Below, in pieces: positions 164 to 10,418 of a stretch of DNA of 10,418 nucleotides (position 1 is the first letter of the stretch; each line of letters opens with the position of its first letter). This DNA comes from Promethearchaeota archaeon (GTDB lineage: Archaea; Asgardarchaeota; Lokiarchaeia; Sigyniarchaeales; SOKP01). The notes beneath the pieces are model-generated. The model made no database searches. It was given only the letters and a program-made list of their open reading frames with translations, and was not told the DNA's origin. Where the stretch lies: positions 1-10,418 of the forward strand of contig JBHLNT010000151.1 of NCBI GenBank assembly GCA_048941265.1, in the 5' to 3' direction. A program made the position numbers and the translations under genes.

Positions 164-955
164 ATGATGACATTTAATAATATTGAAAAATTAAAAGAGG
201 AAAATACCATAAAAATTCGTCAATTTTTTTTAGATTACCTAGATAGAGTAAATTACAAAGGGACTTTCGGAGTTGCGAAATTTTCATCCGTTTATAATGA
301 TTTAATGCCCGTACAGCAAGATAACGTTAAAAATAAACTTAAAGAACGATTCCTTGACTTTATGAATACTGGCTCTATTATTTCTATAGGTATTTTTTAC
401 GCTCCTGATATTATAGACTGTATAAATGTCAATAGGAATGATATAATTGATTTAAATCGTTGGAATCTTTATAGTGATGAATATCAGCACATAAATGACA
501 TGCTCAAAGTAATTAGCAAAAATATTGCAGACGAGTTTAATGGAATAGCTTATACTCCTACAACTGGAACACCTTCAGAACAAATTAAGAACGTGAAAGA
601 TTATTATTATAAAACTATTTCCCATCGTCTTGTCGCAGAATATGCTGGTGTTGGTTGGCGAGGCAAAAGTGAATTAATCATTACTGAAGAAAAAGGACCT
701 ACAATACGATTTACATCTATTCTTATCAACATTCCAATGATTCAAGGATTAAAATTAGAGAGCAAATGTGGGGAATGCACCGCATGCCTCGAAGTTTGCC
801 CTATTTTAAAAAATAAAGAATTTCTTGAAGATTACAGAGAAAACTGCAGAAAATTTCTTATTAACTTAGGACTAAAACATGAAGTATGTGGAAAATGTAT
901 AAAAGCTTGCTTTCGTGAAAGTATATATAAGAGAAATTTTAAGGCAAAACTCTAA
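164..955 (+). CDS. Epoxyqueuosine reductase (QueG)/reductive dehalogenase superfamily 4Fe-4S protein, probably cobalamin-binding; substrate unknown
   Basis: 263-aa ORF containing SHRLVAEYAGVGWRGKSELIITEEKGPTIRFTSIL, which resembles the QueG/RdhA 'A..AG.G..G...L.I....G...R...I' signature. It is followed by CGECTACLEVCP and C...CGKCIKAC Fe-S motifs. The start could be ATG 164 or ATG 167. Confidence 0.75.
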   Translation: MMTFNNIEKLKEENTIKIRQFFLDYLDRVNYKGTFGVAKFSSVYNDLMPVQQDNVKNKLKERFLDFMNTGSIISIGIFYAPDIIDCINVNRNDIIDLNRWNLYSDEYQHINDMLKVISKNIADEFNGIAYTPTTGTPSEQIKNVKDYYYKTISHRLVAEYAGVGWRGKSELIITEEKGPTIRFTSILINIPMIQGLKLESKCGECTACLEVCPILKNKEFLEDYRENCRKFLINLGLKHEVCGKCIKACFRESIYKRNFKAKL

Positions 956-984
956 TAATTTATCAGTCAAAAAAATATAGAAAA

Positions 985-1070
985 GTTCAGTTTTTTAATA
1001 ATATATAGCCAAAATATATAAGAAAAAAAAAAAGAAAAATTCAATTTTTAATTTTCACACTTTTTTTGTT
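985..1070. terminator. Probable bidirectional archaeal oligo-T terminator region between convergent genes
   Basis: There are T-runs on the + strand (about 991-997 and 1060-1067) after the 955 stop. An A11 run at 1023-1033 reads as T11 on the - strand after the cdc48 stop. Confidence 0.45.
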
Positions 1071-1076
1071 AAAAAT

Positions 1077-3356
1077 TTATCGATATAATTCTTCTGAGGG
1101 CTCTTCCAAGCTTTCAGTATACGATTTTTTAGCTCTTTCAGCACTTTGCTTAATTTTTTCAATAGCCTTTTCAAATTCATTATTTGATATTTTGACTTCT
1201 CTGAAAGATTCAGGAACCATCTTATCTATTTTATAATCATAAATACCTTTTCTAATTGCTAATAATGTAGCTTCCTCGCAAATCGCCGCTATATCTGCCC
1301 CTGCAAAACCCTCTAGTCTTTCTGCAAGTTTCTCAGTATTAACATCTTCATCGATCGGTCGACCTTTCAGATGAATCGTGAAGATTTGAATACGTGAATT
1401 TTTATTTGGCAATGGCACCTCTACATGTCTACCAAATCTACCTGAGCGTAGTAAAGCAGGATCTAGTAAGTCAGGTCTATTGGTTGCGGCTAATAAAACA
1501 ACATTTCTCAATTCTTCCAAACCATCCATTTCGGTTAATAATTGCGCGACGACCTGTTCATTGACCCGAGAATTAGAGCTATCACTTCGTTTTGCTGCTA
1601 TGGCGTCTATTTCATCAAAGAAAATAATACATGGTGCTGCTGATCGCGCTTTACGAAAGATTTCTCTTATAGCTTTAGCGCTTTCACCCACCCATTTAGA
1701 CATTAACTCCGGTCCTTTTATTGAAATAAAATTTACTTCAGTTTCATGAGCTACTGCTTTTGCCATTAATGTTTTCCCCGTTCCAGGTAATCCAAATAGT
1801 AATATTCCATTTGGAGGTCTTGATTTCATATAATTATAAAATTTTGAGTATTTTAACGGCCATTCAATGATCTCTCTAAGTTGCTGTTTTGCATCTTCTA
1901 GACCGCCAACATCATCCCAAGTTTCACTAGGTTTAGTTATAAATACTTCTCTTAGGGCTGAGGGTTCTATTCCAGTCAATGCATCTAAGAAATGAATCAT
2001 TTTAATCTTTAAATTCTGCAAAATTTCTTGAGGAATTGGAGCATCAAGATTAACCAGGGGGATTATCTCCCTAATAGAAAGCATGGCTGCTTCTTTAGCT
2101 AGTGCTTGAATATCAGCACCTACAAATCCATGTGTTTTTTCAGCAAGCAATTGCAAATTAACATCTTTAGCAAGAGGCATACCCCGTGTGTGAATTAATA
2201 AAATTTCATACCGACCATTTATATCAGGAACGCTTATTTCGATTTCACGATCGAATCTGCCCGGTCTTCTCAAAGCAATATCAATATTATTAATCTTATT
2301 TGTAGCCCCAATTATAATTACTTCTCCTCTTCCTTCTAAACCATCCATTAAAGAAAGTAATTGAGCGACAATCCGAGATTCAACTTGAGTTTTTCCTTCA
2401 TCTCGTTTAGGAGCAATTGAATCTAACTCATCAAGAAAGATGATTGATGGTGCTTTTTCTTTAGCTTCTTCAAAAATTTTTCTTAAATTTTCTTCACTTT
2501 GACCGAAAAATTTGCTCATAATTTCTGGACCACTTATAGAAATGAAATGAGCATCAGTCTCATAAGCAACTGCTCTAGCTAGTAATGTCTTTCCTGTTCC
2601 TGGAGGACCGTGAAGTAATACTCCTTTCGGAGGATTTATTCCAATTTTTTCAAATAATTCCGGATGTCTGATGGGTAATTCTATCATTTCCCTTATTTTT
2701 TGAATTTCTGATTCTAGACCTCCAATATCTTCATATGAGATTCTCGTAGCAATCTTATGCATTTCCTTTTCTAAATCGCCAATTGCTTCGTATTTCACTT
2801 TAGCTTTTTCCTTTAATAAAAAATCTTCAACTTTTTCATCAGTTAACTTTATTTTAGTATCTAAGGTAATTCTAACAGCATCAGCTTTAGGAGTGTAATC
2901 CACGATAACGAGATCAATTCTTCGTCCCATAGCATAAAAACTTAAACTGTCGCCTTTAGTAATTATTCTCTTTTCCAATTTTATTGCTAATTGTTGAGTA
3001 TCTCGGATCAGAAATGATTCATCTAGTCCGGCGAATGTAATACTTTCTGCAGGACTAGAGGTAATTTTTCGAATTTCTACATAATCATCAATCGACGCAC
3101 TTATATTTCTTCTCTCTGATGGATCCATCCTTATTACTTTGGTTCCTTTATCTTCTACTTTTCCAGGAGATAACAATGCAGCTGTTTTCTTATTTGAATT
3201 AGGATGAGATATTTCTAAAACATCATTCACTTTAAATCCAAATTTATTAATGATGTCAGGATCCAATCTAATGATTCCCTTTCCCGCATCTTCCTTAAAT
3301 GCGTCTTTTATCCTTAAATTAATTATTCCTTTAGTTCTGTTTTCTTTCTCATCCAT
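1077..3356 (-). CDS. cdc48: CDC48/VCP/p97 family AAA+ ATPase (N domain plus D1 and D2)
   Basis: N-domain motif DAFKEDAGKGIIRLD. D1 has YEDIGGL, GPPGTGKT, IIFLDELD and ALRRPGRFDREI. D2 has WDDVGGL, GLPGTGKT, IIFFDEID and ALLRSGRFGR. The C-terminus is an HbYX motif (LYR). The ORF track starts at GTG 3368, but that codon overlaps the GAGGTG RBS (3368-3373), so ATG at 3356 (759 aa) is preferred. Confidence 0.96.
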   Translation of the reverse strand: MDEKENRTKGIINLRIKDAFKEDAGKGIIRLDPDIINKFGFKVNDVLEISHPNSNKKTAALLSPGKVEDKGTKVIRMDPSERRNISASIDDYVEIRKITSSPAESITFAGLDESFLIRDTQQLAIKLEKRIITKGDSLSFYAMGRRIDLVIVDYTPKADAVRITLDTKIKLTDEKVEDFLLKEKAKVKYEAIGDLEKEMHKIATRISYEDIGGLESEIQKIREMIELPIRHPELFEKIGINPPKGVLLHGPPGTGKTLLARAVAYETDAHFISISGPEIMSKFFGQSEENLRKIFEEAKEKAPSIIFLDELDSIAPKRDEGKTQVESRIVAQLLSLMDGLEGRGEVIIIGATNKINNIDIALRRPGRFDREIEISVPDINGRYEILLIHTRGMPLAKDVNLQLLAEKTHGFVGADIQALAKEAAMLSIREIIPLVNLDAPIPQEILQNLKIKMIHFLDALTGIEPSALREVFITKPSETWDDVGGLEDAKQQLREIIEWPLKYSKFYNYMKSRPPNGILLFGLPGTGKTLMAKAVAHETEVNFISIKGPELMSKWVGESAKAIREIFRKARSAAPCIIFFDEIDAIAAKRSDSSNSRVNEQVVAQLLTEMDGLEELRNVVLLAATNRPDLLDPALLRSGRFGRHVEVPLPNKNSRIQIFTIHLKGRPIDEDVNTEKLAERLEGFAGADIAAICEEATLLAIRKGIYDYKIDKMVPESFREVKISNNEFEKAIEKIKQSAERAKKSYTESLEEPSEELYR

Positions 3357-3453
3357 TTTTTCAATCACACCTCTTATTTTCTTTTATTCTTCATTAAAAT
3401 TAAATAAAATACATTTTAGATTGATTCTGTGAATTAATCCTATGATCCTAATT

Positions 3454-3464
3454 AAAAAAAAAAA
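3454..3464 (-). terminator. Possible oligo-T (T11) terminator downstream of mtd
   Basis: A11 on the + strand, about 20 nt past the mtd stop codon. Confidence 0.35.
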
Positions 3465-3483
3465 TTTATTGTTTTTTTTAATT

Positions 3484-4473
3484 TTATTCTTTAAAAAGCA
3501 GTTTCTTCGCTACTTCAAAAGCATAATTATAATCAAAAACCTTTAAACCCTTACAATTTGCGGCTTCTTTAAGTATTTGTCCCTCAGAATTTGATTTAAG
3601 CTGGCCTAGAGCCATAGCGCCAATACCAAAAATTCCTGGATATATTTCTTCATTTTTATGTTTAGGTTTTAGACCCTCTATTCCGTAGGGTGGTACTAAA
3701 TTTATATCTACAACAATTTTTTTACCTTTAAGCCTTTGCATTAAATCTTCTGAAAGAATCTCAACACCCGCAGCAGCTAACGACCAAATTATATCTGCGT
3801 CTTTAGCAATTTCAAATCTTTCCTCTGGATCTGGAGCAAAAACTCCCTTAATTTCCCCAGCTTCTTTTCCGGCTTCTTCTGTTAATTCTTTTGCGAGGTT
3901 TTCGATAAAATTTTTGCTTGATTGTTCCCAAGTTTCAATTAAAAAAGTATTGCAATTAATTTTTGCCGCCAAAATTGCTGCAATTCTCCCTACAGGTCCC
4001 GCACCAAATACCACTACTTTTTTTCCTCTCAAATTTTTTATTCCATGCTTTTTATCGGCAATATGCATGGTCATTGCAACCACAGCGGATGCTGTTGTAT
4101 GAGATCCACGAGGATCTATAATCACAGGGCATTCAAAAGGGGTAACTAATGAGTTTATCACCTTTTTAGCAATACTTTCACCCTCTTTTACATTGGACCC
4201 TCCTATGAAAAATGTAGTAGCAGCACCCGGTTTCCGAGAAAAAATAGCATCTTGAACTAGCTTAGGAACTTGATCTGCTGTCATTTTACTAATAGGCACT
4301 ACAATATCAAAACCCGCATCATAGGCCATATTTATATCGAAAGGTGAAGCATTATCATCTGTATCAAAGAAATAACATATTTTATCTGACTTCTCTACCT
4401 TTTTTATTTTAATTGGTGTTAATTCTATTATGGTTTTTCTTCCTAATATTTTTTCTACTTCACTTCTTTGCAT
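3484..4473 (-). CDS. mtdB: NAD(P)-dependent methylene-tetrahydromethanopterin (or methylene-H4F) dehydrogenase, MtdA/MtdB family, with an N-terminal extension of about 30 aa
   Basis: Motifs SPFDINMAYDAGFD, LVQDAIFSR, DPRGSHTTASA, Rossmann VVVFGAGPVG, DINLVPPYGIEG and GIGAMALG..K match the Mtd family. An RBS-like GGAGTTGA lies upstream. The MtdA versus MtdB assignment is uncertain. Confidence 0.85.
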   Translation of the reverse strand: MQRSEVEKILGRKTIIELTPIKIKKVEKSDKICYFFDTDDNASPFDINMAYDAGFDIVVPISKMTADQVPKLVQDAIFSRKPGAATTFFIGGSNVKEGESIAKKVINSLVTPFECPVIIDPRGSHTTASAVVAMTMHIADKKHGIKNLRGKKVVVFGAGPVGRIAAILAAKINCNTFLIETWEQSSKNFIENLAKELTEEAGKEAGEIKGVFAPDPEERFEIAKDADIIWSLAAAGVEILSEDLMQRLKGKKIVVDINLVPPYGIEGLKPKHKNEEIYPGIFGIGAMALGQLKSNSEGQILKEAANCKGLKVFDYNYAFEVAKKLLFKE

Positions 4474-4534: not shown

Positions 4535-5260
4535 TTATTTCTCAGGAATTTCAATTTCAATCTCATCTTCTTGTTCCTTCTCCACTTCTTTAATAGTTCT
4601 CTTGATTTTTATCTGTTCAGTTTCTACACCTAATTCATTTGCTAATTTATCAAGGCCATTAAAATGTCTAAGATCACAGATAAATAGTCCTTTTAATTTT
4701 TTACCGTTGACATCCCTTGCAAGATTTAGTATATTCATCATCATCCATGCTTCACGTACTTTATGTCTTACTTCATCTTCCTGCTCTTCATAATCTCGAT
4801 GTAAATATTCTTTCCATAAAATTAATTGCTGGAAAAATTCATCATTTTCAGGAACTCCGCCTTTTTTTTCTATCATTTCTCTGATCCTTATCTCGAGCTT
4901 TTTTATACTTTCTCTATGGTCATCTAAGGCAACTGACAAATAATCGCTCGCATTTTCCGAAATATCCCCAAGTTTGAATGGAATATTTTTTTCTTTAAAT
5001 AATTTTATCAATGGATCATTAGGGTTAAGCGTATCATCTCTCATACCTTTCTCTTCCATAGCGAAATCAGGGTGATATTTCTCTATTAAATCTTCAATTA
5101 GGCCCAGATATTCCTTGGAAATTAGGTGTAAATTCCAGATAAGGTCTTCTTTAGCTTTCTTTGGAGCTTCAAACCACCATTCAACTGGAAATTCACTTTC
5201 AACCATTATTAATTTCAAATGCTGTTTCTTTAAAGGCTCTAATTCTAAAACTTCAGGCAT
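4535..5260 (-). CDS. Uncharacterised protein (241 aa), possible TraB/PrgY/Tiki-like alpha/beta fold with a helical insertion; paralog of 5286..5903
   Basis: Full ORF with AGGAGG RBS. Motifs IEKYHPDFAMEE, VREAWM and LFICDLRHFNGL are reminiscent of TraB-family 'PDxVxVE', 'RxxxM' and 'VVGxxHxxGI'. It has an acidic C-terminal tail. The fold call is by eye only. Confidence 0.7.
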   Translation of the reverse strand: MPEVLELEPLKKQHLKLIMVESEFPVEWWFEAPKKAKEDLIWNLHLISKEYLGLIEDLIEKYHPDFAMEEKGMRDDTLNPNDPLIKLFKEKNIPFKLGDISENASDYLSVALDDHRESIKKLEIRIREMIEKKGGVPENDEFFQQLILWKEYLHRDYEEQEDEVRHKVREAWMMMNILNLARDVNGKKLKGLFICDLRHFNGLDKLANELGVETEQIKIKRTIKEVEKEQEDEIEIEIPEK

Positions 5261-5285: not shown

Positions 5286-5903
5286 TTAAAATATTATATT
5301 TTTAATTGTATGTTTTTTATTATATTGAATAACTTTAACATTATATTCTCTTAAATACTCAACAACTTGTGAACAGATATCTTCACATATATCTGTTTGA
5401 ACAAAATGAACAAAATTGACATCATCTTCTTGAAAATTTTTCGCGAGATCCAACATCTTTTTCACGATCCACATAGGTCTAATCTTAAGAGTAAGATGAT
5501 TTTCTTTTTCTTGAATTTCAATATTTATCAAATCTATCCAATTTTTTAGACTTTGACCCTTATATGAATCCCTATCTTCCAAATTTACATATTCTTCAGT
5601 TAAACCTGTGAGCAACTCCTCCTTTTCCATAATTTCCTCATAAAGATACCCCATTGCATATTCCGGAATATCTACTTGATAATATTTAATTCCCAATTTA
5701 TCTAATGCCTTAGCAAACGGGGTCCTGCTGAAATCTTTAAGATCTATATCAAAGTCAACCGTAACAAAATTAATTTTGTTATTACTTAGAAAATTTTTTA
5801 ATAAATCTGGATCAGTACTTTGAAGACTCTTACTATTTTCCTTCGCGAATATAAAAGCTGTGACTTTTTTATTTTTTATTGGTTTAATTTCTAAAACTTC
5901 CAT
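5286..5903 (-). CDS. Uncharacterised protein (205 aa), paralog of the flanking 241-aa and 74-aa proteins
   Basis: Full ORF co-oriented in the cluster, with an RBS-like GAGTTGA and visible sequence similarity to both neighbours. Confidence 0.75.
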   Translation of the reverse strand: MEVLEIKPIKNKKVTAFIFAKENSKSLQSTDPDLLKNFLSNNKINFVTVDFDIDLKDFSRTPFAKALDKLGIKYYQVDIPEYAMGYLYEEIMEKEELLTGLTEEYVNLEDRDSYKGQSLKNWIDLINIEIQEKENHLTLKIRPMWIVKKMLDLAKNFQEDDVNFVHFVQTDICEDICSQVVEYLREYNVKVIQYNKKHTIKNIIF

Positions 5904-6301: not shown

Positions 6302-6323
6302 TTTGACAAATATTTTTGTCAAA
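6302..6323. promoter_or_regulatory. Perfect palindrome TTTGACAAA-N4-TTTGTCAAA, candidate transcription-factor operator
   Basis: 9-bp perfect inverted arms in the divergent intergenic region. Degenerate copies with identical spacing occur at 6332-6351, 6410-6429 and 6570-6589. Confidence 0.6.
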
Positions 6324-6501
6324 TCGATATTTTAACAAAATAAATTATCAAGATTTTGCATAGCTTTAAACATGTCTTAAGGATATTGGTTAAAATTGTC
6401 ATTCATGACATGAAAACTTTTTTTGTCAAAATATTTGATAAAACTAACCTTTTTTAAATCATATTAGAAATAATATCCTTGAGTTATGTGAAATATTAAT
6501 G

Positions 6502-6547: not shown

Positions 6548-6631
6548 TTGATAGAAATATTTATAAATCTCGACAACAATTATTGTCATGTCGAAAAGAA
6601 AAATTGTTAAATTAGTCATATTTATTATCAA
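6548..6631. promoter_or_regulatory. Phased array of degenerate TTGACA-N8-TGTCAA boxes upstream of the HTH-hdrA gene
   Basis: TTGATA-N8-TATAAA (6548), TCGACA-N8-TGTCAT (6570), TCGAAA-N8-TGTTAA (6591) and TTAGTC-N8-TATCAA (6612), spaced 21-22 bp apart. Confidence 0.45.
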
Positions 6632-6675: not shown

Positions 6676-9234
6676 ATGTTGGATATATATTCAATCTTAT
6701 CTCATCCTTTTAGAAGAAAAATCCTTTTGCTCCTGGAAAAAGAAGGGTATATTCCATATACAGATTTGATGGAAAAGTTGGGTCTTGAAACAACGGGACA
6801 ATTAAATTTCCACCTAAAAAAAGTTGGTAGTTTAGTTAACAAGGATCAAAAATCATATTTTCTTACGGAAGATGGAAAACGGATCTTAAAAATCATTAGG
6901 ATTAATAAGAGAATTTTAGAGGGAGAGGATATTAATGAATATTTAGAATCTAAGGGGAGTGAGATAAGTCGTGTTGGTGTTATTGTATGTAACTGTAATA
7001 CAGAAATATCAAAAGCGATTAACATCGATCTTCTTGAAAATTATCTAACTAAATTAAAGAATGTAGTTTCCGTTAGAGTATTTGATAATTTATGCCAAAC
7101 AAAGAATTTTGACAAGATTTCAAAATGGGTCAAAGAGAATTTTTTAAATAAAATCGTTATAGCAGCATGCTCTCCAAAAACCCATCAGATTCTCTTTGAA
7201 AGAATTTTTCAAGATGTAATTGATCGTGCTAATATTGAAATCGCTAATATTAGAGAACAATGTGCTTGGGTGCATTATTATAACGCTGATCCTAAGCAAA
7301 TAGATCCTTACCTTATCTTAGATAAAGCAAAATTATTAATTGAGGCTGCTATTGCGCGCGTAATTCTTCAAAAAGAAGTGAAAATTAAACGTGTTGAGAT
7401 AGAGAAAAGCTGTGCTGTTCTTGGAGGAGGCATTGCTGGTATGACTTTAGCTTTAAATTTAGCTAGAGCAGGGATAAAAGTATTTCTAATTGAGAAATCT
7501 CCTACTTTGGGCGGTAAAGTAGCTAGGTGGAATCGAATTTATAAAATGGGAGATTGTTCTATTTGTTTCATATCAGAATTAATAGCAGAGATTGTTAAAG
7601 AAAAGAATATTAAAGTTTTTACTAATACAGAAATAGAAAATGTATCTGGAGAAGTTGGGAACTTCACACTTGATTTAGTAAAAAAACCGAGATTTATAGA
7701 CGAACGAAAATGTACTGGCTGCAAACAGTGCCTTGAAGTATGCAATATAGAAAAATCCGATCAGTATGAGTTTGGTTTAAAGAATAGAAAAATTATATAC
7801 ATTCCTTTTATACATTCTTTTCCATATGTGCCTTTAATTGATGAAAGTGATATTAAAAATTGCCTTAATTGTAGGATATGTGAAAGGGCTTGTGTGAATA
7901 AAGCTATAGATCTGAATCAAGTTCCAGAAAATATAAAAATTAAAGTTGGGACAAAAGTTATCGCTATTGGTGCTGATCTTACCTCTAATTTAGAAGAATT
8001 TGGTTATAATCCGCAAGATGATATTATTACTTCTGCTGAATTTGAGCGAATTTTATCTTCAGATGGCATTACCGAAGGAAATTTGGTAAAACTTTCTGAT
8101 AGAGAACCACCAAAATCAATTTCAATAGTTCAGTGTGCAGGTAATTCTGATTTTCATTCGAAATTTAAAGATGCCATTGTATTAAAATATATAGATAGTA
8201 TTACAGGGAGGTTGCCTCAATGTGAAATTAATGTCTTTTATGATTTAAACAAATTCAAAAAAGATAAAGCTTTTTTCCTGACACCTATGGATAAAAGATT
8301 TCATTACGCGCAAAAATTAAAAATTATTGGAAAAAACAACAAAAAATATGTCATTGCAGATTCACAAGAATATCCTAGTGATATGATAATCCTAAATATA
8401 GATCTTATTCCAAATACTGATTTAAAAAATCTACGTACAATAATGGATTTTTCCTTAAACGATGATGGATTCATGAGCGAAGAAACATTAGGATCTGGGA
8501 TTTATGGCATTGGAACTATTTTGGGTCCTCTTGATTATCATAAAACGGTTTCTACTGCAAACAATGTGGCATTAAAAGTGATATCTTTACTTTCTCAAGA
8601 ATATTTAATAGCAGAATTTACCGGAATTGAAATTAATGAGGATAAATGCGGTTTATGTGGCTTATGCATGCAATCTTGCCCTTATAACGCAATTGTTATA
8701 GGAAATGAAAGAATAAATGTTGATAAATTTAAATGCAAAGGGTGTGGTACTTGTGTGAGTGTTTGTCCTACTAATGCGATTGAAATGAATGTTGACACTT
8801 CTGAGAAAATACTTAAAACGATTGAAATATTATCGAAATCGAAAAGAACTCCAAAAATAGTGGCATTCTGCTGTAAATCCTGTGGATATGCAGCCGCAGA
8901 TGATGCTGGATTTAAAAAACTCCATTATGATCCAAATATCTTTATTATAAGAGTCCCTTGTACCGGAAGGGTGGACACAAACTTTATTATTAAAGCTATT
9001 GAGTTTGGTTTTGATGGAGTCATGATAATTGGATGTAGAAGGAATGCATGCAGGTATATTGATGGAGTAGAAAAAGTAGAAAAAAAAATTCAATTATTAA
9101 GGGAAATTTTAGGCCCCAAATATGGCAATCGCATTATTCTCAAACACATGAATGCTGTTGAGGGGAATAAGTTTGCAGAAGTTATAAATGAATTTTATAA
9201 TCAATTGGCCGAGGAGGTAAAATTTGAAGCTTAA
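6676..9234 (+). CDS. hdrA: Fusion protein: ArsR-like winged HTH, HdrA-like flavo-iron-sulfur domain (heterodisulfide reductase subunit A) and C-terminal MvhD (hydrogenase delta, [2Fe-2S])
   Basis: Residues 1 to about 80 read LSHPFRRKILLLL...YTDLMEKLGLETTGQLNFHLKKV...YFLTEDG (wHTH). HdrA motifs: RVGVIVCNC, AACSP, NIREQCAWVH, GGGIAG, EKSPTLGG, DCSIC and EFERIL, plus four CxxCxxCxxxC ferredoxin motifs. MvhD motifs: FCCKSCGYAAAD, RVPCTGRVD and DGVMIIGCRRNACRY. RBS GGTGGAG at 6661-6667. Confidence 0.92.
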   Translation: MLDIYSILSHPFRRKILLLLEKEGYIPYTDLMEKLGLETTGQLNFHLKKVGSLVNKDQKSYFLTEDGKRILKIIRINKRILEGEDINEYLESKGSEISRVGVIVCNCNTEISKAINIDLLENYLTKLKNVVSVRVFDNLCQTKNFDKISKWVKENFLNKIVIAACSPKTHQILFERIFQDVIDRANIEIANIREQCAWVHYYNADPKQIDPYLILDKAKLLIEAAIARVILQKEVKIKRVEIEKSCAVLGGGIAGMTLALNLARAGIKVFLIEKSPTLGGKVARWNRIYKMGDCSICFISELIAEIVKEKNIKVFTNTEIENVSGEVGNFTLDLVKKPRFIDERKCTGCKQCLEVCNIEKSDQYEFGLKNRKIIYIPFIHSFPYVPLIDESDIKNCLNCRICERACVNKAIDLNQVPENIKIKVGTKVIAIGADLTSNLEEFGYNPQDDIITSAEFERILSSDGITEGNLVKLSDREPPKSISIVQCAGNSDFHSKFKDAIVLKYIDSITGRLPQCEINVFYDLNKFKKDKAFFLTPMDKRFHYAQKLKIIGKNNKKYVIADSQEYPSDMIILNIDLIPNTDLKNLRTIMDFSLNDDGFMSEETLGSGIYGIGTILGPLDYHKTVSTANNVALKVISLLSQEYLIAEFTGIEINEDKCGLCGLCMQSCPYNAIVIGNERINVDKFKCKGCGTCVSVCPTNAIEMNVDTSEKILKTIEILSKSKRTPKIVAFCCKSCGYAAADDAGFKKLHYDPNIFIIRVPCTGRVDTNFIIKAIEFGFDGVMIIGCRRNACRYIDGVEKVEKKIQLLREILGPKYGNRIILKHMNAVEGNKFAEVINEFYNQLAEEVKFEA

Positions 9235-9982
9235 GTTTTCAATTATTTCTTTAACTGGATGTAGTGGATGTATATCTACATTAATTTCACTTGATATTTT
9301 CCCTCAATTTTTAGAAAGGACTGAAATTTTATATTTTCCATTTATTAATGACACGAGAAAAGTTGAGAATTGTGATGTAGCATTAATAGAGGGATGTATT
9401 TCGGAAAAAAGTGAAATTAATTTTCTTAAAAATATAAGAAAGTCCGCAAAAAAAGTTTATGCCTTAGGTTCTTGTGCAGCTTATGGGGGAATCTTAAGCC
9501 TTTCAGATAAAATTAATGCAGAACCGATTTCAAATTTTATAGAGATAGATGGGTTAATTCCTGGTTGCCCAATCCCATCTAAATTACTCGGGAATTGCTT
9601 AATTAAATTAATCGAAAATAAAGAGATAGAATTATCCGAAAGAAATCTGTGTGCAACATGCCCTTTTAATGGAACCTTAGATTTAGATTTTAAAACAAAA
9701 GTAATTAAATATTATCCATCCCAAGATGAGATTTTAACTCCTGAAGAAAATTCAAATTGTTTTTTGAAGCGAGGAATTCTGTGTTTCGGTCCCATTACCC
9801 GAGATGGATGTGAACAAAGATGTATTTCACAGGGAATTCCCTGTGAGGGGTGTATGGGCCCTGTTTCAAAAGATTATTTTGCTAATATGATTAATTATCT
9901 AAGTTTAATAAAGCTTTCAGAGGAATTAAGAAGATATAAAGGAATTTTTTATCGATTTTCAAAACCAAAACTTAATTGGTGA
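9224..9982 (+). CDS. mvhG: [NiFe]-hydrogenase small subunit, group 3 (MvhG/VhuG-like)
   Basis: Motifs LTGCSGC, EG, GSCAAYGGI, IPGCP, CATCP and CFL..G.LCFGPITRDGC...C......CEGCMGP. No Tat signal. TTG start with GAGGAGGT RBS at 9211-9218, overlapping the upstream gene by 11 nt. Confidence 0.88.
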   Translation: MKLKFSIISLTGCSGCISTLISLDIFPQFLERTEILYFPFINDTRKVENCDVALIEGCISEKSEINFLKNIRKSAKKVYALGSCAAYGGILSLSDKINAEPISNFIEIDGLIPGCPIPSKLLGNCLIKLIENKEIELSERNLCATCPFNGTLDLDFKTKVIKYYPSQDEILTPEENSNCFLKRGILCFGPITRDGCEQRCISQGIPCEGCMGPVSKDYFANMINYLSLIKLSEELRRYKGIFYRFSKPKLNW

Positions 9983-9987
9983 TCGTA

Positions 9988-10418
9988 ATGCTAAAAGTTG
10001 TTGAAGTATGCTCTCGGGTTGAAGGACATGGTAATATGAATTTATATATTAATAATCAAAATGATGAAATTTCACATGTTGATTTTGAAATTAGAGCTTA
10101 TCGAGGATTTGAAGATATTTTAATCGGTAAAAAATTGATTGATATCCCTAAAATCACATCAAGAATATGTGGATTATGTCATGCCTCCCAATCCATCGTT
10201 AGTTGTAAAACTATAGAATCTATTTACGATGTTGTGCCATCAGAACGTTCAGTTCTTTTAAGAAGACTATTATTAGCAGGAGAATTGATAAAATCGCATA
10301 GTTTGCATTTCTTTTTTCAATCTTTTCCGGATTTATTGAAGATCTTTAATATTAAGCAGAAAATTCCGTCTCTTTATGAATTAATAAATTATAATCCCCA
10401 ATTAACAACAAATTTTTA
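9988..10418 (+). CDS. mvhA: [NiFe]-hydrogenase large subunit, group 3 (MvhA-like), 5' part; runs off the window end and is not in the ORF track
   Basis: Manual translation from ATG 9988 gives MLKVVEVCSRVEGHGNMNLYINNQNDEISHVDFEIRAYRGFEDILIGKKLIDIPKITSRICGLCHASQSIVSCKTIE...LIKSHSLHFFFQSFPD. It contains RVEGHG, RGFE, the L1 RICGxC and SHxLH motifs, with GGTGAT RBS upstream. The frame is open to the end of the window. Confidence 0.92.
   Translation, partial: MLKVVEVCSRVEGHGNMNLYINNQNDEISHVDFEIRAYRGFEDILIGKKLIDIPKITSRICGLCHASQSIVSCKTIESIYDVVPSERSVLLRRLLLAGELIKSHSLHFFFQSFPDLLKIFNIKQKIPSLYELINYNPQLTTNF

Follow-up and report, generated by a model that had tools for sequence, protein, structure and literature searches.

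A glutamine-type [NiFe] hydrogenase in a lineage-specific, HdrA-linked operon of an Asgard archaeon

The DNA analysed here, referred to as the window (10,418 nucleotides), is the entire contig G000:C157 of a Promethearchaeota archaeon genome of 5,011,874 bases in 361 contigs (91% complete, contamination 4.8%), and contains the 5' portion of a lineage-specific operon for a [NiFe] hydrogenase. The archaeon is of Asgard (Promethearchaeota/Lokiarchaeia) type. The large subunit of this hydrogenase carries glutamine in place of the usual histidine of the nickel-binding L1 motif. Judged from its sequence, the operon on balance probably encodes a catalytic, HdrA-coupled hydrogenase in which the surroundings of the active site underwent a single retuning that then became fixed, and whose fused winged helix-turn-helix (wHTH) domain would provide self-regulation. 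This reading is favoured because the metal ligands, proton gate, three iron-sulfur (FeS) clusters, MvhD module and complete HdrA are intact, and because the corresponding glutamine of the Ralstonia sensor, a regulatory hydrogenase (RH), 'seems not to be involved in H2 sensing' according to the available part of PMC5665086. The glutamine itself is an unusual enzyme variant and no proof of an H2 sensor.

The L1 glutamine as a trait of one clade

The features of the large subunit within the window are as follows.

9988..10418, + strand: first 143 residues of the [NiFe] hydrogenase large subunit, with ATG at 9988 and an open reading frame (ORF) running past the contig end
10162..10194, + strand: L1 motif RICGLCHASQS (R59-S69), with Cys61 and Cys64 as Ni ligands and Gln68 in place of the usual His
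10318..10320, + strand: codon CAA of Gln111 in HFFFQSFPD, singled out by the column comparison given below

Translation of 9988-10416 yields MLKVVEVCSRVEGHG...TSRICGLCHASQSIVSCK...SHSLHFFFQSFPD. It agrees to the base with the initial annotation of this DNA, which had placed the motif and its CAA-encoded Gln68 here, and it contains RVEGHG and SHSLHFF, which had been reported from the same protein. The codon at 10189-10191 sets Gln68 four residues past Cys64, so that the protein departs from the usual [NiFe] pattern RxCGxCxxxH. In phmmer alignments with solved structures, the Gln68 column holds His in RICGICPVSH (7t2r_D), RICGICQVAH (MvhA, 5odc_F) and RICGICDVQH (9sw2_F). In a MAFFT alignment it holds Gln in HoxC of C. 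necator (RVCGICSVSQS; pHG1 17976-19433) and His in HoxG. The motifs that the annotation had cited are thereby borne out for MvhA (RxCGxCxxxH) and, as regards the Gln of xSQS, for HoxC.

A full-length counterpart of the truncated gene is provided by contig C64 of the same genome, which matches the window end at about 95% nucleotide identity (last 519 bases; overlap window 9535-10418 / G000:C64 2586-3471). It contains the last part of the small-subunit gene as well as a full large subunit of 433 aa starting with MLKVV (G000:C64 1715-3016, minus strand), which is 95% identical to the window fragment at the protein level. The pair represents either two strains binned together or an operon duplication, and the rest of the window's own large-subunit gene was not found elsewhere in the assembly. 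Both proteins exceed the PF00374 cut-off of 25.8 bits, the full-length copy with 87.5 bits. The C64 protein ends in ...IRAFDPCISCATH-stop, containing DPCISCATH, with both L2 cysteines intact and nothing past the final His.

The annotation had proposed inspection of the 3' end for an intact L2 motif and an absent maturation peptide; in the C64 copy both were found, a sensor-like outcome. Close homologues, defined as the 120 best matches (57-100% identity) in a collection of 5.8 billion proteins, all have an intact and C-terminal L2 motif, the final residue being His in 119 and Tyr in one. Since all 120 end at L2, an intact L2 and an absent tail can safely be inferred for the window's own copy as well. 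However, the missing peptide is not specific to sensors, because 18 of the 117 His-type group-3 tips in the tree described below also lack a tail, and the tail measures 12 residues or less in 61 of the 117. Four deeper representatives of the Gln clade have short tails of 5-11 residues.

The glutamine is no sequencing accident, as SQ is likewise found here in the 95%-identical C64 copy and in 119 of the 120 close homologues. L1 could be parsed in 119 of these homologues, and every one of the 119 reads C[HYFC]xSQ. Only ten of the 150 best 50%-identity representatives have Gln, and all ten rank among the higher-scoring matches; the closer His-bearing relatives include P0123 (45% identity, CYASH) and P0128 (35%, CSSAH). 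A tree was built from 156 sequences, namely 133 representatives of at least 380 aa (17 shorter ones dropped), 20 of the 120 close homologues (each sixth one), HoxC, HoxG and the VhuA-like protein of the genome. In this tree, all 25 Gln sequences other than HoxC form one clade (support 0.755), Gln is found in none of the 116 other tips, and P0123, which has His, is sister to the clade (the two joined with support 1.0); more His-bearing group-3 sequences come next.

Because the Gln clade is nested among His-bearing group-3 sequences and the window-type protein shares just 18% identity with HoxC, Gln arose once, inside group 3 and independently of group 2b; common descent with HoxC is not supported, its nearest relatives being the His-bearing group-3 sequences. 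The convergence with group 2b suggested by the annotation is thus upheld. It had also allowed that Gln might prove common among ordinary catalytic group-3 enzymes in operons without a regulator; Gln is not common there, and a wHTH domain resembling that of a regulator is encoded in the operon, a feature that the annotation did not mention. The available part of PMC5665086 stated in 2015 that the L1 His is conserved in all [NiFe] hydrogenases but the bacterial H2 sensors, which no longer holds, because Gln occupies the position in this clade and Tyr in a further small group. The Tyr group accounts for 6 of the 156 tree sequences: P0203, P0222, P0231, P0244, P0260 and P0269 are group-3-like large subunits with Tyr at the L1 His (CPVAYQM).

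Across 251 genomes sampled from the phylum on the basis of GTDB, matches to the Gln type at 50% identity or more are confined to the window's own family, where the type occurs in 45 of the 62 sampled genomes including G000, and weaker relatives (35-44%) occur in three other families. An Asgard-wide clade, suggested by source names (Hod-, Hermod-, Thor-, Heimdall- and Odinarchaeota), was discarded in view of this single-family distribution.

The replacement at position 68 does not stand alone. When well-conserved columns were compared between 25 Gln-clade and 116 His-type sequences, only four were found to differ.

Position 68: Gln in 25/25 of the Gln clade; His in 116/116 of the His type; Gln in HoxC
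Position 111: Gln in 96% of the Gln clade; Leu in 89/116 of the His type; Phe in HoxC
Position 418: Gln in 92% of the Gln clade; Glu in 85/116 of the His type; Gln in HoxC
Position 424: Phe in 100% of the Gln clade; Tyr in 84/116 and Phe in 27 of the His type; Phe in HoxC

The sister sequence P0123 already has Gln111 and Gln418 and retains His68, which indicates that position 68 changed last. Column 111 is, as we take it, the gas-channel gate, corresponding to Leu122 in Desulfovibrio fructosovorans and Phe110 in the Ralstonia sensor. The remaining active-site positions are canonical in the alignment, including Glu12 and His14 of RVEGH, His104, His107, Asp115 and the PRG arginine, and all four Ni-ligand cysteines together with the proton and arginine residues are kept across homologues of 50-100% identity. 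Histidines other than that of L1 are the subject of the available parts of PMC3325256 and PMC6695573.

An HdrA-MvhD partner with a fused wHTH domain

Two genes precede the large subunit in the operon.

6676..9234, + strand: 852-aa fusion protein of an ArsR-like wHTH, HdrA and MvhD/FlpD (Pfam DUF7347, FlpD, Fer4 and FAD families)
9224..9982, + strand: MvhG-like small subunit of 252 aa (Pfam Oxidored_q6), overlapping the fusion gene by 11 bases

The small subunit matches MvhG (5odc_E, E 4.5e-32) with 12 aligned cysteines arranged for three [4Fe-4S] clusters. In the fusion protein, residues 96-718 cover the whole of HdrA (PDB 8rvu_a, E 2.9e-112) and residues 723-846 correspond to MvhD/FlpD (PDB 5odc_D, E 6.2e-25 over 723-844). 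These profile and structure matches, together with those to MvhA, agree with the annotation's view that the rest of the large subunit and its partners are group-3-like. An HdrBC-like or other second acceptor module is absent from the window.

The arrangement was followed through a synteny set of 31 related loci from named Asgard metagenome-assembled genomes. The gene order, wHTH-HdrA-MvhD fusion, MvhG and large subunit, is kept wherever the available DNA suffices to see it, with MvhG upstream of the large subunit in 28/28 loci, the fusion in 27/27 and the wHTH in 24/24.

Residues 1-95 of the fusion (6676-6960) constitute the extra wHTH, which scores 40.9 bits against a cut-off of 27.6 with Pfam DUF7347 and matches HTH_24 weakly. 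Its fold model (pLDDT 79) has the element order H-H-E-H-H-E-E, and the nearest Foldseek matches are YodB, NolR, CadC, SarZ, HxlR and QsrR (TM 0.54-0.67). Across related loci this domain is the best conserved part of the fusion, with 72-86% identity versus 66-75% over the full length; columns within it average 89% identity, and the recognition helix TGQLNFHLK is invariant in 25 sequences. The N-terminal region is common to 182 protein clusters at E <=1e-5. Among 120 of these clusters, complete proteins measure 819-855 aa, three are shorter (474-679 aa, including some labelled partial), and nearly all have the same domain set.

Among solved structures, the nearest to the large subunit are those of catalytic group-3 enzymes. 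The group 3c large subunits MvhA/VhuA align over their full length (5odc_F, E 2.7e-50; 9sw2_F, E 1.2e-45) and share the four cysteines, RVEGH, PRG and the partners MvhG, MvhD and HdrA. The window type differs from them by Gln at the L1 His, by Gln111 and Gln418 in place of the usual Leu and Glu, and by ending at the final His, past which MvhA extends for about 25 residues. Furthermore, its MvhD and HdrA are fused and joined to a wHTH, and adjacent HdrBC genes are lacking. NCBIfam VhuA is the best model for the window type, at 170 bits against a cut-off of 800. The best solved match is 7t2r_D, the NiFe large subunit of the electron-bifurcating HydABCSL (E 4.4e-55 over residues 7-433), which itself has RICGICPVSH, a C-terminal tail of about 25 residues and, judged by the entry name only, partners that are not of HdrA type. 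For the fusion, the closest counterpart is HdrA2 of Methanosarcina, an HdrA-MvhD fusion (NF040770) whose profile positions 1-770 of 777 match residues 99-846 (E 1.2e-177); HdrA2 is also the best NCBIfam model, at 592 bits under a cut-off of 1100. Unlike HdrA2, the window fusion has the extra 95-residue N-terminal wHTH and is encoded with a hydrogenase. The regulators YodB (5hs9), NolR (4omy) and CadC (1u2w) belong to the same fold class as the wHTH, whereas the domain here is part of an 852-aa redox enzyme.

Fusions of this general kind are already catalogued, as the name of arCOG02189, 'HTH containing transcriptional regulator fused to ferredoxin domain', shows (Table S4 of PMC11216029, available in part). 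Also in that table is GNAMCCOK_04659 (rank 156), an abundant HTH-HdrA protein that may be orthologous to the window fusion.

In the catalytic reading, H2 would be split at a NiFe site held by Cys61, Cys64, Cys427 and Cys430, and protons would leave via the conserved Glu12 of RVEGH. Electrons would cross the MvhG-like subunit by its three [4Fe-4S] clusters, enter the MvhD domain and then reach the flavin of the complete HdrA, the last two being contained in one 852-aa protein; this predicted wiring is that of the flavin-based electron-bifurcating Mvh/Vhu-Hdr complexes. Three second-sphere or channel positions would have been replaced and then fixed, Gln111 and Gln418 first and His68 to Gln afterwards. 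Such replacements may retune a working catalytic site, through hydrogen bonding to the bridging cysteine, redox states and gas access, rather than convert it into a sensor. The large subunit would need no C-terminal proteolytic maturation. Finally, the N-terminal wHTH most likely binds the palindromes over the promoter of its own operon, and the complex could then autoregulate, possibly by redox state, by analogy with PutA, which autoregulates in such fashion.

Promoter palindromes, the second hydrogenase and the choice between readings

The intergenic region upstream of the fusion gene (485 bases) holds three palindromic sites beside a TATA-like box.

6305..6320, no strand: perfect palindrome GACAA-N6-TTGTC, distal copy, in the upstream intergenic region of the operon
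6412..6427, no strand: third copy of the palindrome, with one mismatch, in the same region
6558..6568, + strand: TATA-like box ATATTTATAAA, aligned with TTTATATA in related promoters and presumed to act as promoter element
6572..6587, no strand: perfect palindrome GACAACAATTATTGTC, directly after the TATA-like box and 104 bases before the start codon; candidate operator

The three sites (at most one mismatch) found in the window compare with 0.31 expected, and three were reached in 1 of 200 shuffles. The exact sequence GACAA-N6-TTGTC occurs twice in the whole genome, both times in this promoter, and no other 500-base stretch of the genome has three or more sites at up to one mismatch. In 25 related loci, the degenerate form GAYAA-N6-TTRTC was found 16 times in the 10,000 bases (400 per locus) upstream of the fusion gene and 22 times in 313,013 bases elsewhere, corresponding to 1.6 versus 0.07 per kb, a ratio to be read with the caveat that intergenic DNA is AT-richer than coding DNA. 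A degenerate site lies upstream in 12 of the 25 loci, in nine of them 90-146 bases before the start codon. A further palindrome with related half-sites, TGTCAT-TC-ATGACA, is present at 6397-6411 in the same intergenic region.

No regulon is visible in the whole genome, because the exact palindrome is found nowhere else and the five other intergenic degenerate sites adjoin unrelated genes (AAA ATPase, SecY, EMC3, Lsm and aminotransferase), none of them near Vhu or hyp genes. If the wHTH binds the palindrome, its only visible target would be its own operon.

The genome encodes a second, canonical [NiFe] hydrogenase at G000:C200 (L047) 853-3665, minus strand. This locus comprises a 438-aa small subunit, a VhuA-like large subunit with RICGICPIPHHI and without L2, and a VhuU-like ORF (...RCFDC-TGA-LSCAAH) in which an in-frame TGA at the place of an L2 cysteine may be read as selenocysteine, followed by a 21-residue tail; an HdrC-like gene and then hypD, hypE and hypF come after it. 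The hydrogenase part of C200 is GC-richer (35-39%) than the hyp part (25-36%). Of 118 genomes of the family, 95 have the Vhu type (71-95% identity) and 107 have HypD.

Several observations weigh against a catalytic enzyme that merely regulates itself. The HoxC residue is shared at three of the four clade-defining columns (68, 418 and 424). The Gln type is accessory, as would suit a sensor, and stands beside the far better conserved Vhu type in at least 40 of its 45 genomes. Of the 29 loci having enough downstream DNA, seven show a histidine-kinase gene, recognised by HATPase_c and kinase-core matches, on that side of the operon; it comes directly after the large subunit in six loci, three of which have a short 235-aa form, and two genes downstream on C64. 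As to the proposed operator, the Foldseek matches of the putative DNA-binding domain are weak (best E 3e-3), 13 of the 25 loci have no upstream site (mostly those with a different upstream neighbour), the palindrome pattern was picked after this promoter had been seen, and its degenerate form was derived from the same 25 loci, several of which are close kin. In addition, Ca. L. ossiferum has one mvhA (GNAMCCOK_01654, proteome rank 13), which lies beside hdrB2, hdrC2 and mvhG according to the available part of PMC11216029, an arrangement not seen at Gln-type loci. High abundance of [NiFe] hydrogenases in Ca. L. ossiferum and Ca. P. syntrophicum is described there, which is not assignable to the Gln type and was not used.

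The shared HoxC residues, the accessory distribution and the kinase genes lend some weight to the possibility that the system is a dedicated H2/redox sensor-regulator, an archaeal counterpart of bacterial HoxBC-HoxJ-HoxA built from group-3 parts. A slow hydrogenase would here reduce the MvhD/HdrA cofactors and thereby switch the fused wHTH on or off the DNA, perhaps together with the nearby histidine kinase. The likeness to HoxC, the group 2b protein of Cupriavidus necator, extends from Gln68 in xSQS, Gln418 and Phe424 to the missing C-terminal peptide, HoxC ending in DPCMVCTVH-stop while HoxG has a tail. The extreme conservation of a wHTH fused to the electron acceptor, the palindromes in its own promoter, an accessory distribution nearly always beside a canonical Vhu type with hyp genes, and the kinase genes point the same way.

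Nevertheless, a sensor seems unlikely. HoxC has RVEGD and AARG where the window type has the canonical RVEGH and APRG, and its residue at column 111 is Phe instead of Gln; it is partnered by HoxB, HoxJ (a kinase) and HoxA (a regulator), the window type by MvhG and HdrA-MvhD. A full HdrA with FAD and many FeS sites would be heavy equipment for sensing. The genome-unique palindrome leaves no regulon, and none near Vhu or hyp, for a sensor to govern, and the RH glutamine is reportedly dispensable for sensing (PMC5665086, as cited above). The kinase linkage is likewise limited to those 7 of 29 loci, and the genome contains at least 24 kinase-like matches. The window has no cognate soluble histidine kinase or response regulator of HoxJ/HoxA type, and the downstream kinase of the seven loci is a membrane protein. 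The step from a sensor-type residue to a sensor is not supported, in view of the canonical RVEGH, the complete HdrA-MvhD acceptor, the frequency of tail loss in group 3 and the statement on the RH glutamine.

A more specific proposal is that the three proteins form a one-piece H2-responsive transcription switch, in which a hydrogenase with a convergently sensor-like active site (Gln68, Gln418, no maturation peptide) would pass electrons via MvhD to the HdrA flavin, and the redox state of the HdrA flavoprotein would set the occupancy of GACAA-N6-TTGTC by its own wHTH. This seems unlikely. If true, the switch would be the first H2 sensor described in archaea, made from group-3/Hdr parts and not after the bacterial group 2b/two-component design, and it would come from the lineage whose hydrogen metabolism plays a central part in models of how eukaryotes arose.

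The second hydrogenase suggests another explanation, in which the Gln-type operon is a selenium-independent back-up isoenzyme with Cys versions of the large subunit/VhuU, HdrA and MvhD for times of scarce selenium. A parallel is known from Methanococcus, where Vhc/Frc serve in place of Vhu/Fru under selenium shortage. The in-frame TGA of the genome's VhuU-like peptide is consistent with it, as is a divergent HdrA of related loci that has an in-frame TGA at DDCAI-U; the Gln-type operon has Cys at the places corresponding to selenocysteine, and both hydrogenase types co-occur as stated above. VhuU-type selenoproteins are known in Asgard archaea, and MvhA/VhuU, HdrA and MvhD are listed Asgard selenoprotein families (PMC11227280, available in part). 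However, the large subunits of the two types are only about 24% identical and hence not recent isoforms, and the glutamine, the wHTH and the palindromes would be left unexplained. Such a back-up role appears quite unlikely.

That the large subunit is a decaying or cofactor-less relic which no longer binds NiFe is very improbable. Its support comes from within a set of five genomes (G048, G072, G109, G217 and G229), chosen for having a single match to the large subunit, in which no other PF00374, PF00346 or PF02906 match was found. Four of the five lack hypD and hypF (the hypF search excluded G109), leaving four Gln-type genomes in which neither HypD, HypF nor another hydrogenase was found. Yet hypA is retained in 4/4 of these and hypC in 2/4, and the missing genes are linked to each other and to vhu. 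In the genera concerned, hypD lies 4-28 kb from vhu, and in the 10-contig genome G130 hypA and hypC are on contigs other than that of hypD. Since hypD, hypF and vhu are physically linked, one unassembled region explains their absence, and the idea that the Gln type is the sole hydrogenase in the five genomes was dropped in favour of assembly gaps. The conservation of the four cysteines and of the proton and arginine residues described above also argues against decay.

A catalytic, HdrA-coupled enzyme with a retuned active site therefore remains the preferred reading, and it has consequences of its own. An archaeal group-3 clade that lost the L1 His independently, together with a second residue that is also changed in sensors, offers a natural test of the role of the His/Glu pair. 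H2 production or consumption by Asgard archaea is usually deduced from the mere presence of 'group 3c' genes; if the Gln type is slow, biased or regulatory, metabolic reconstructions merge two different things. With its genome-unique palindrome, the wHTH-HdrA protein makes it possible to test in a concrete case whether an electron-bifurcating flavoprotein governs its own production. Public databases give these proteins generic names ('nickel-dependent hydrogenase large subunit', 'hydrogenase iron-sulfur subunit'). In the literature searched, whose coverage excluded subscription journals, no mention was found of the Asgard L1 Gln, the co-variation of Gln111 and Gln418, the promoter palindrome or a wHTH on a hydrogenase-linked HdrA-MvhD fusion.

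Neighbouring genes

A membrane protein that has the conserved stretch KELNCLYGI and some four predicted helices recurs downstream of the large subunit (G000:C64 3-461, minus strand; L009 8405-9466; L028, L030 and L031). In L007, L009 and L020 it runs on into a histidine-kinase core, and in L028, L030 and L031 it is a 235-aa form without kinase domain just after the large subunit. In four loci the large subunit is followed by a protein of 340-349 aa (42-52% identity) for which neither Pfam nor NCBIfam gave a match (G000:C64 644-1693, minus strand; L004, L024 and L033).

Most of the loci L004-L026 have a further HdrA, with 33% identity to the fusion and without wHTH or MvhD, which lies divergent from the operon beside an FrhB-like gene (for instance L009 1196-3025, minus strand). 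Its reading frame contains a TGA at DDCAI-U-VLAP, as would be expected of the HdrA selenoprotein described for Asgard archaea. In the window, different genes occupy the corresponding position. Two genes of the window (4535-5260 and 5286-5903, minus strand) encode acidic proteins of 241 and 205 aa that have no Pfam match and are distant paralogues of each other. Beside the operon, this acidic pair travels with an Mtd-like gene (3484-4473, Mpt_N domain) and a Cdc48 gene (1077-3368), the same association being found in L027, L028, L029, L031 and L033.

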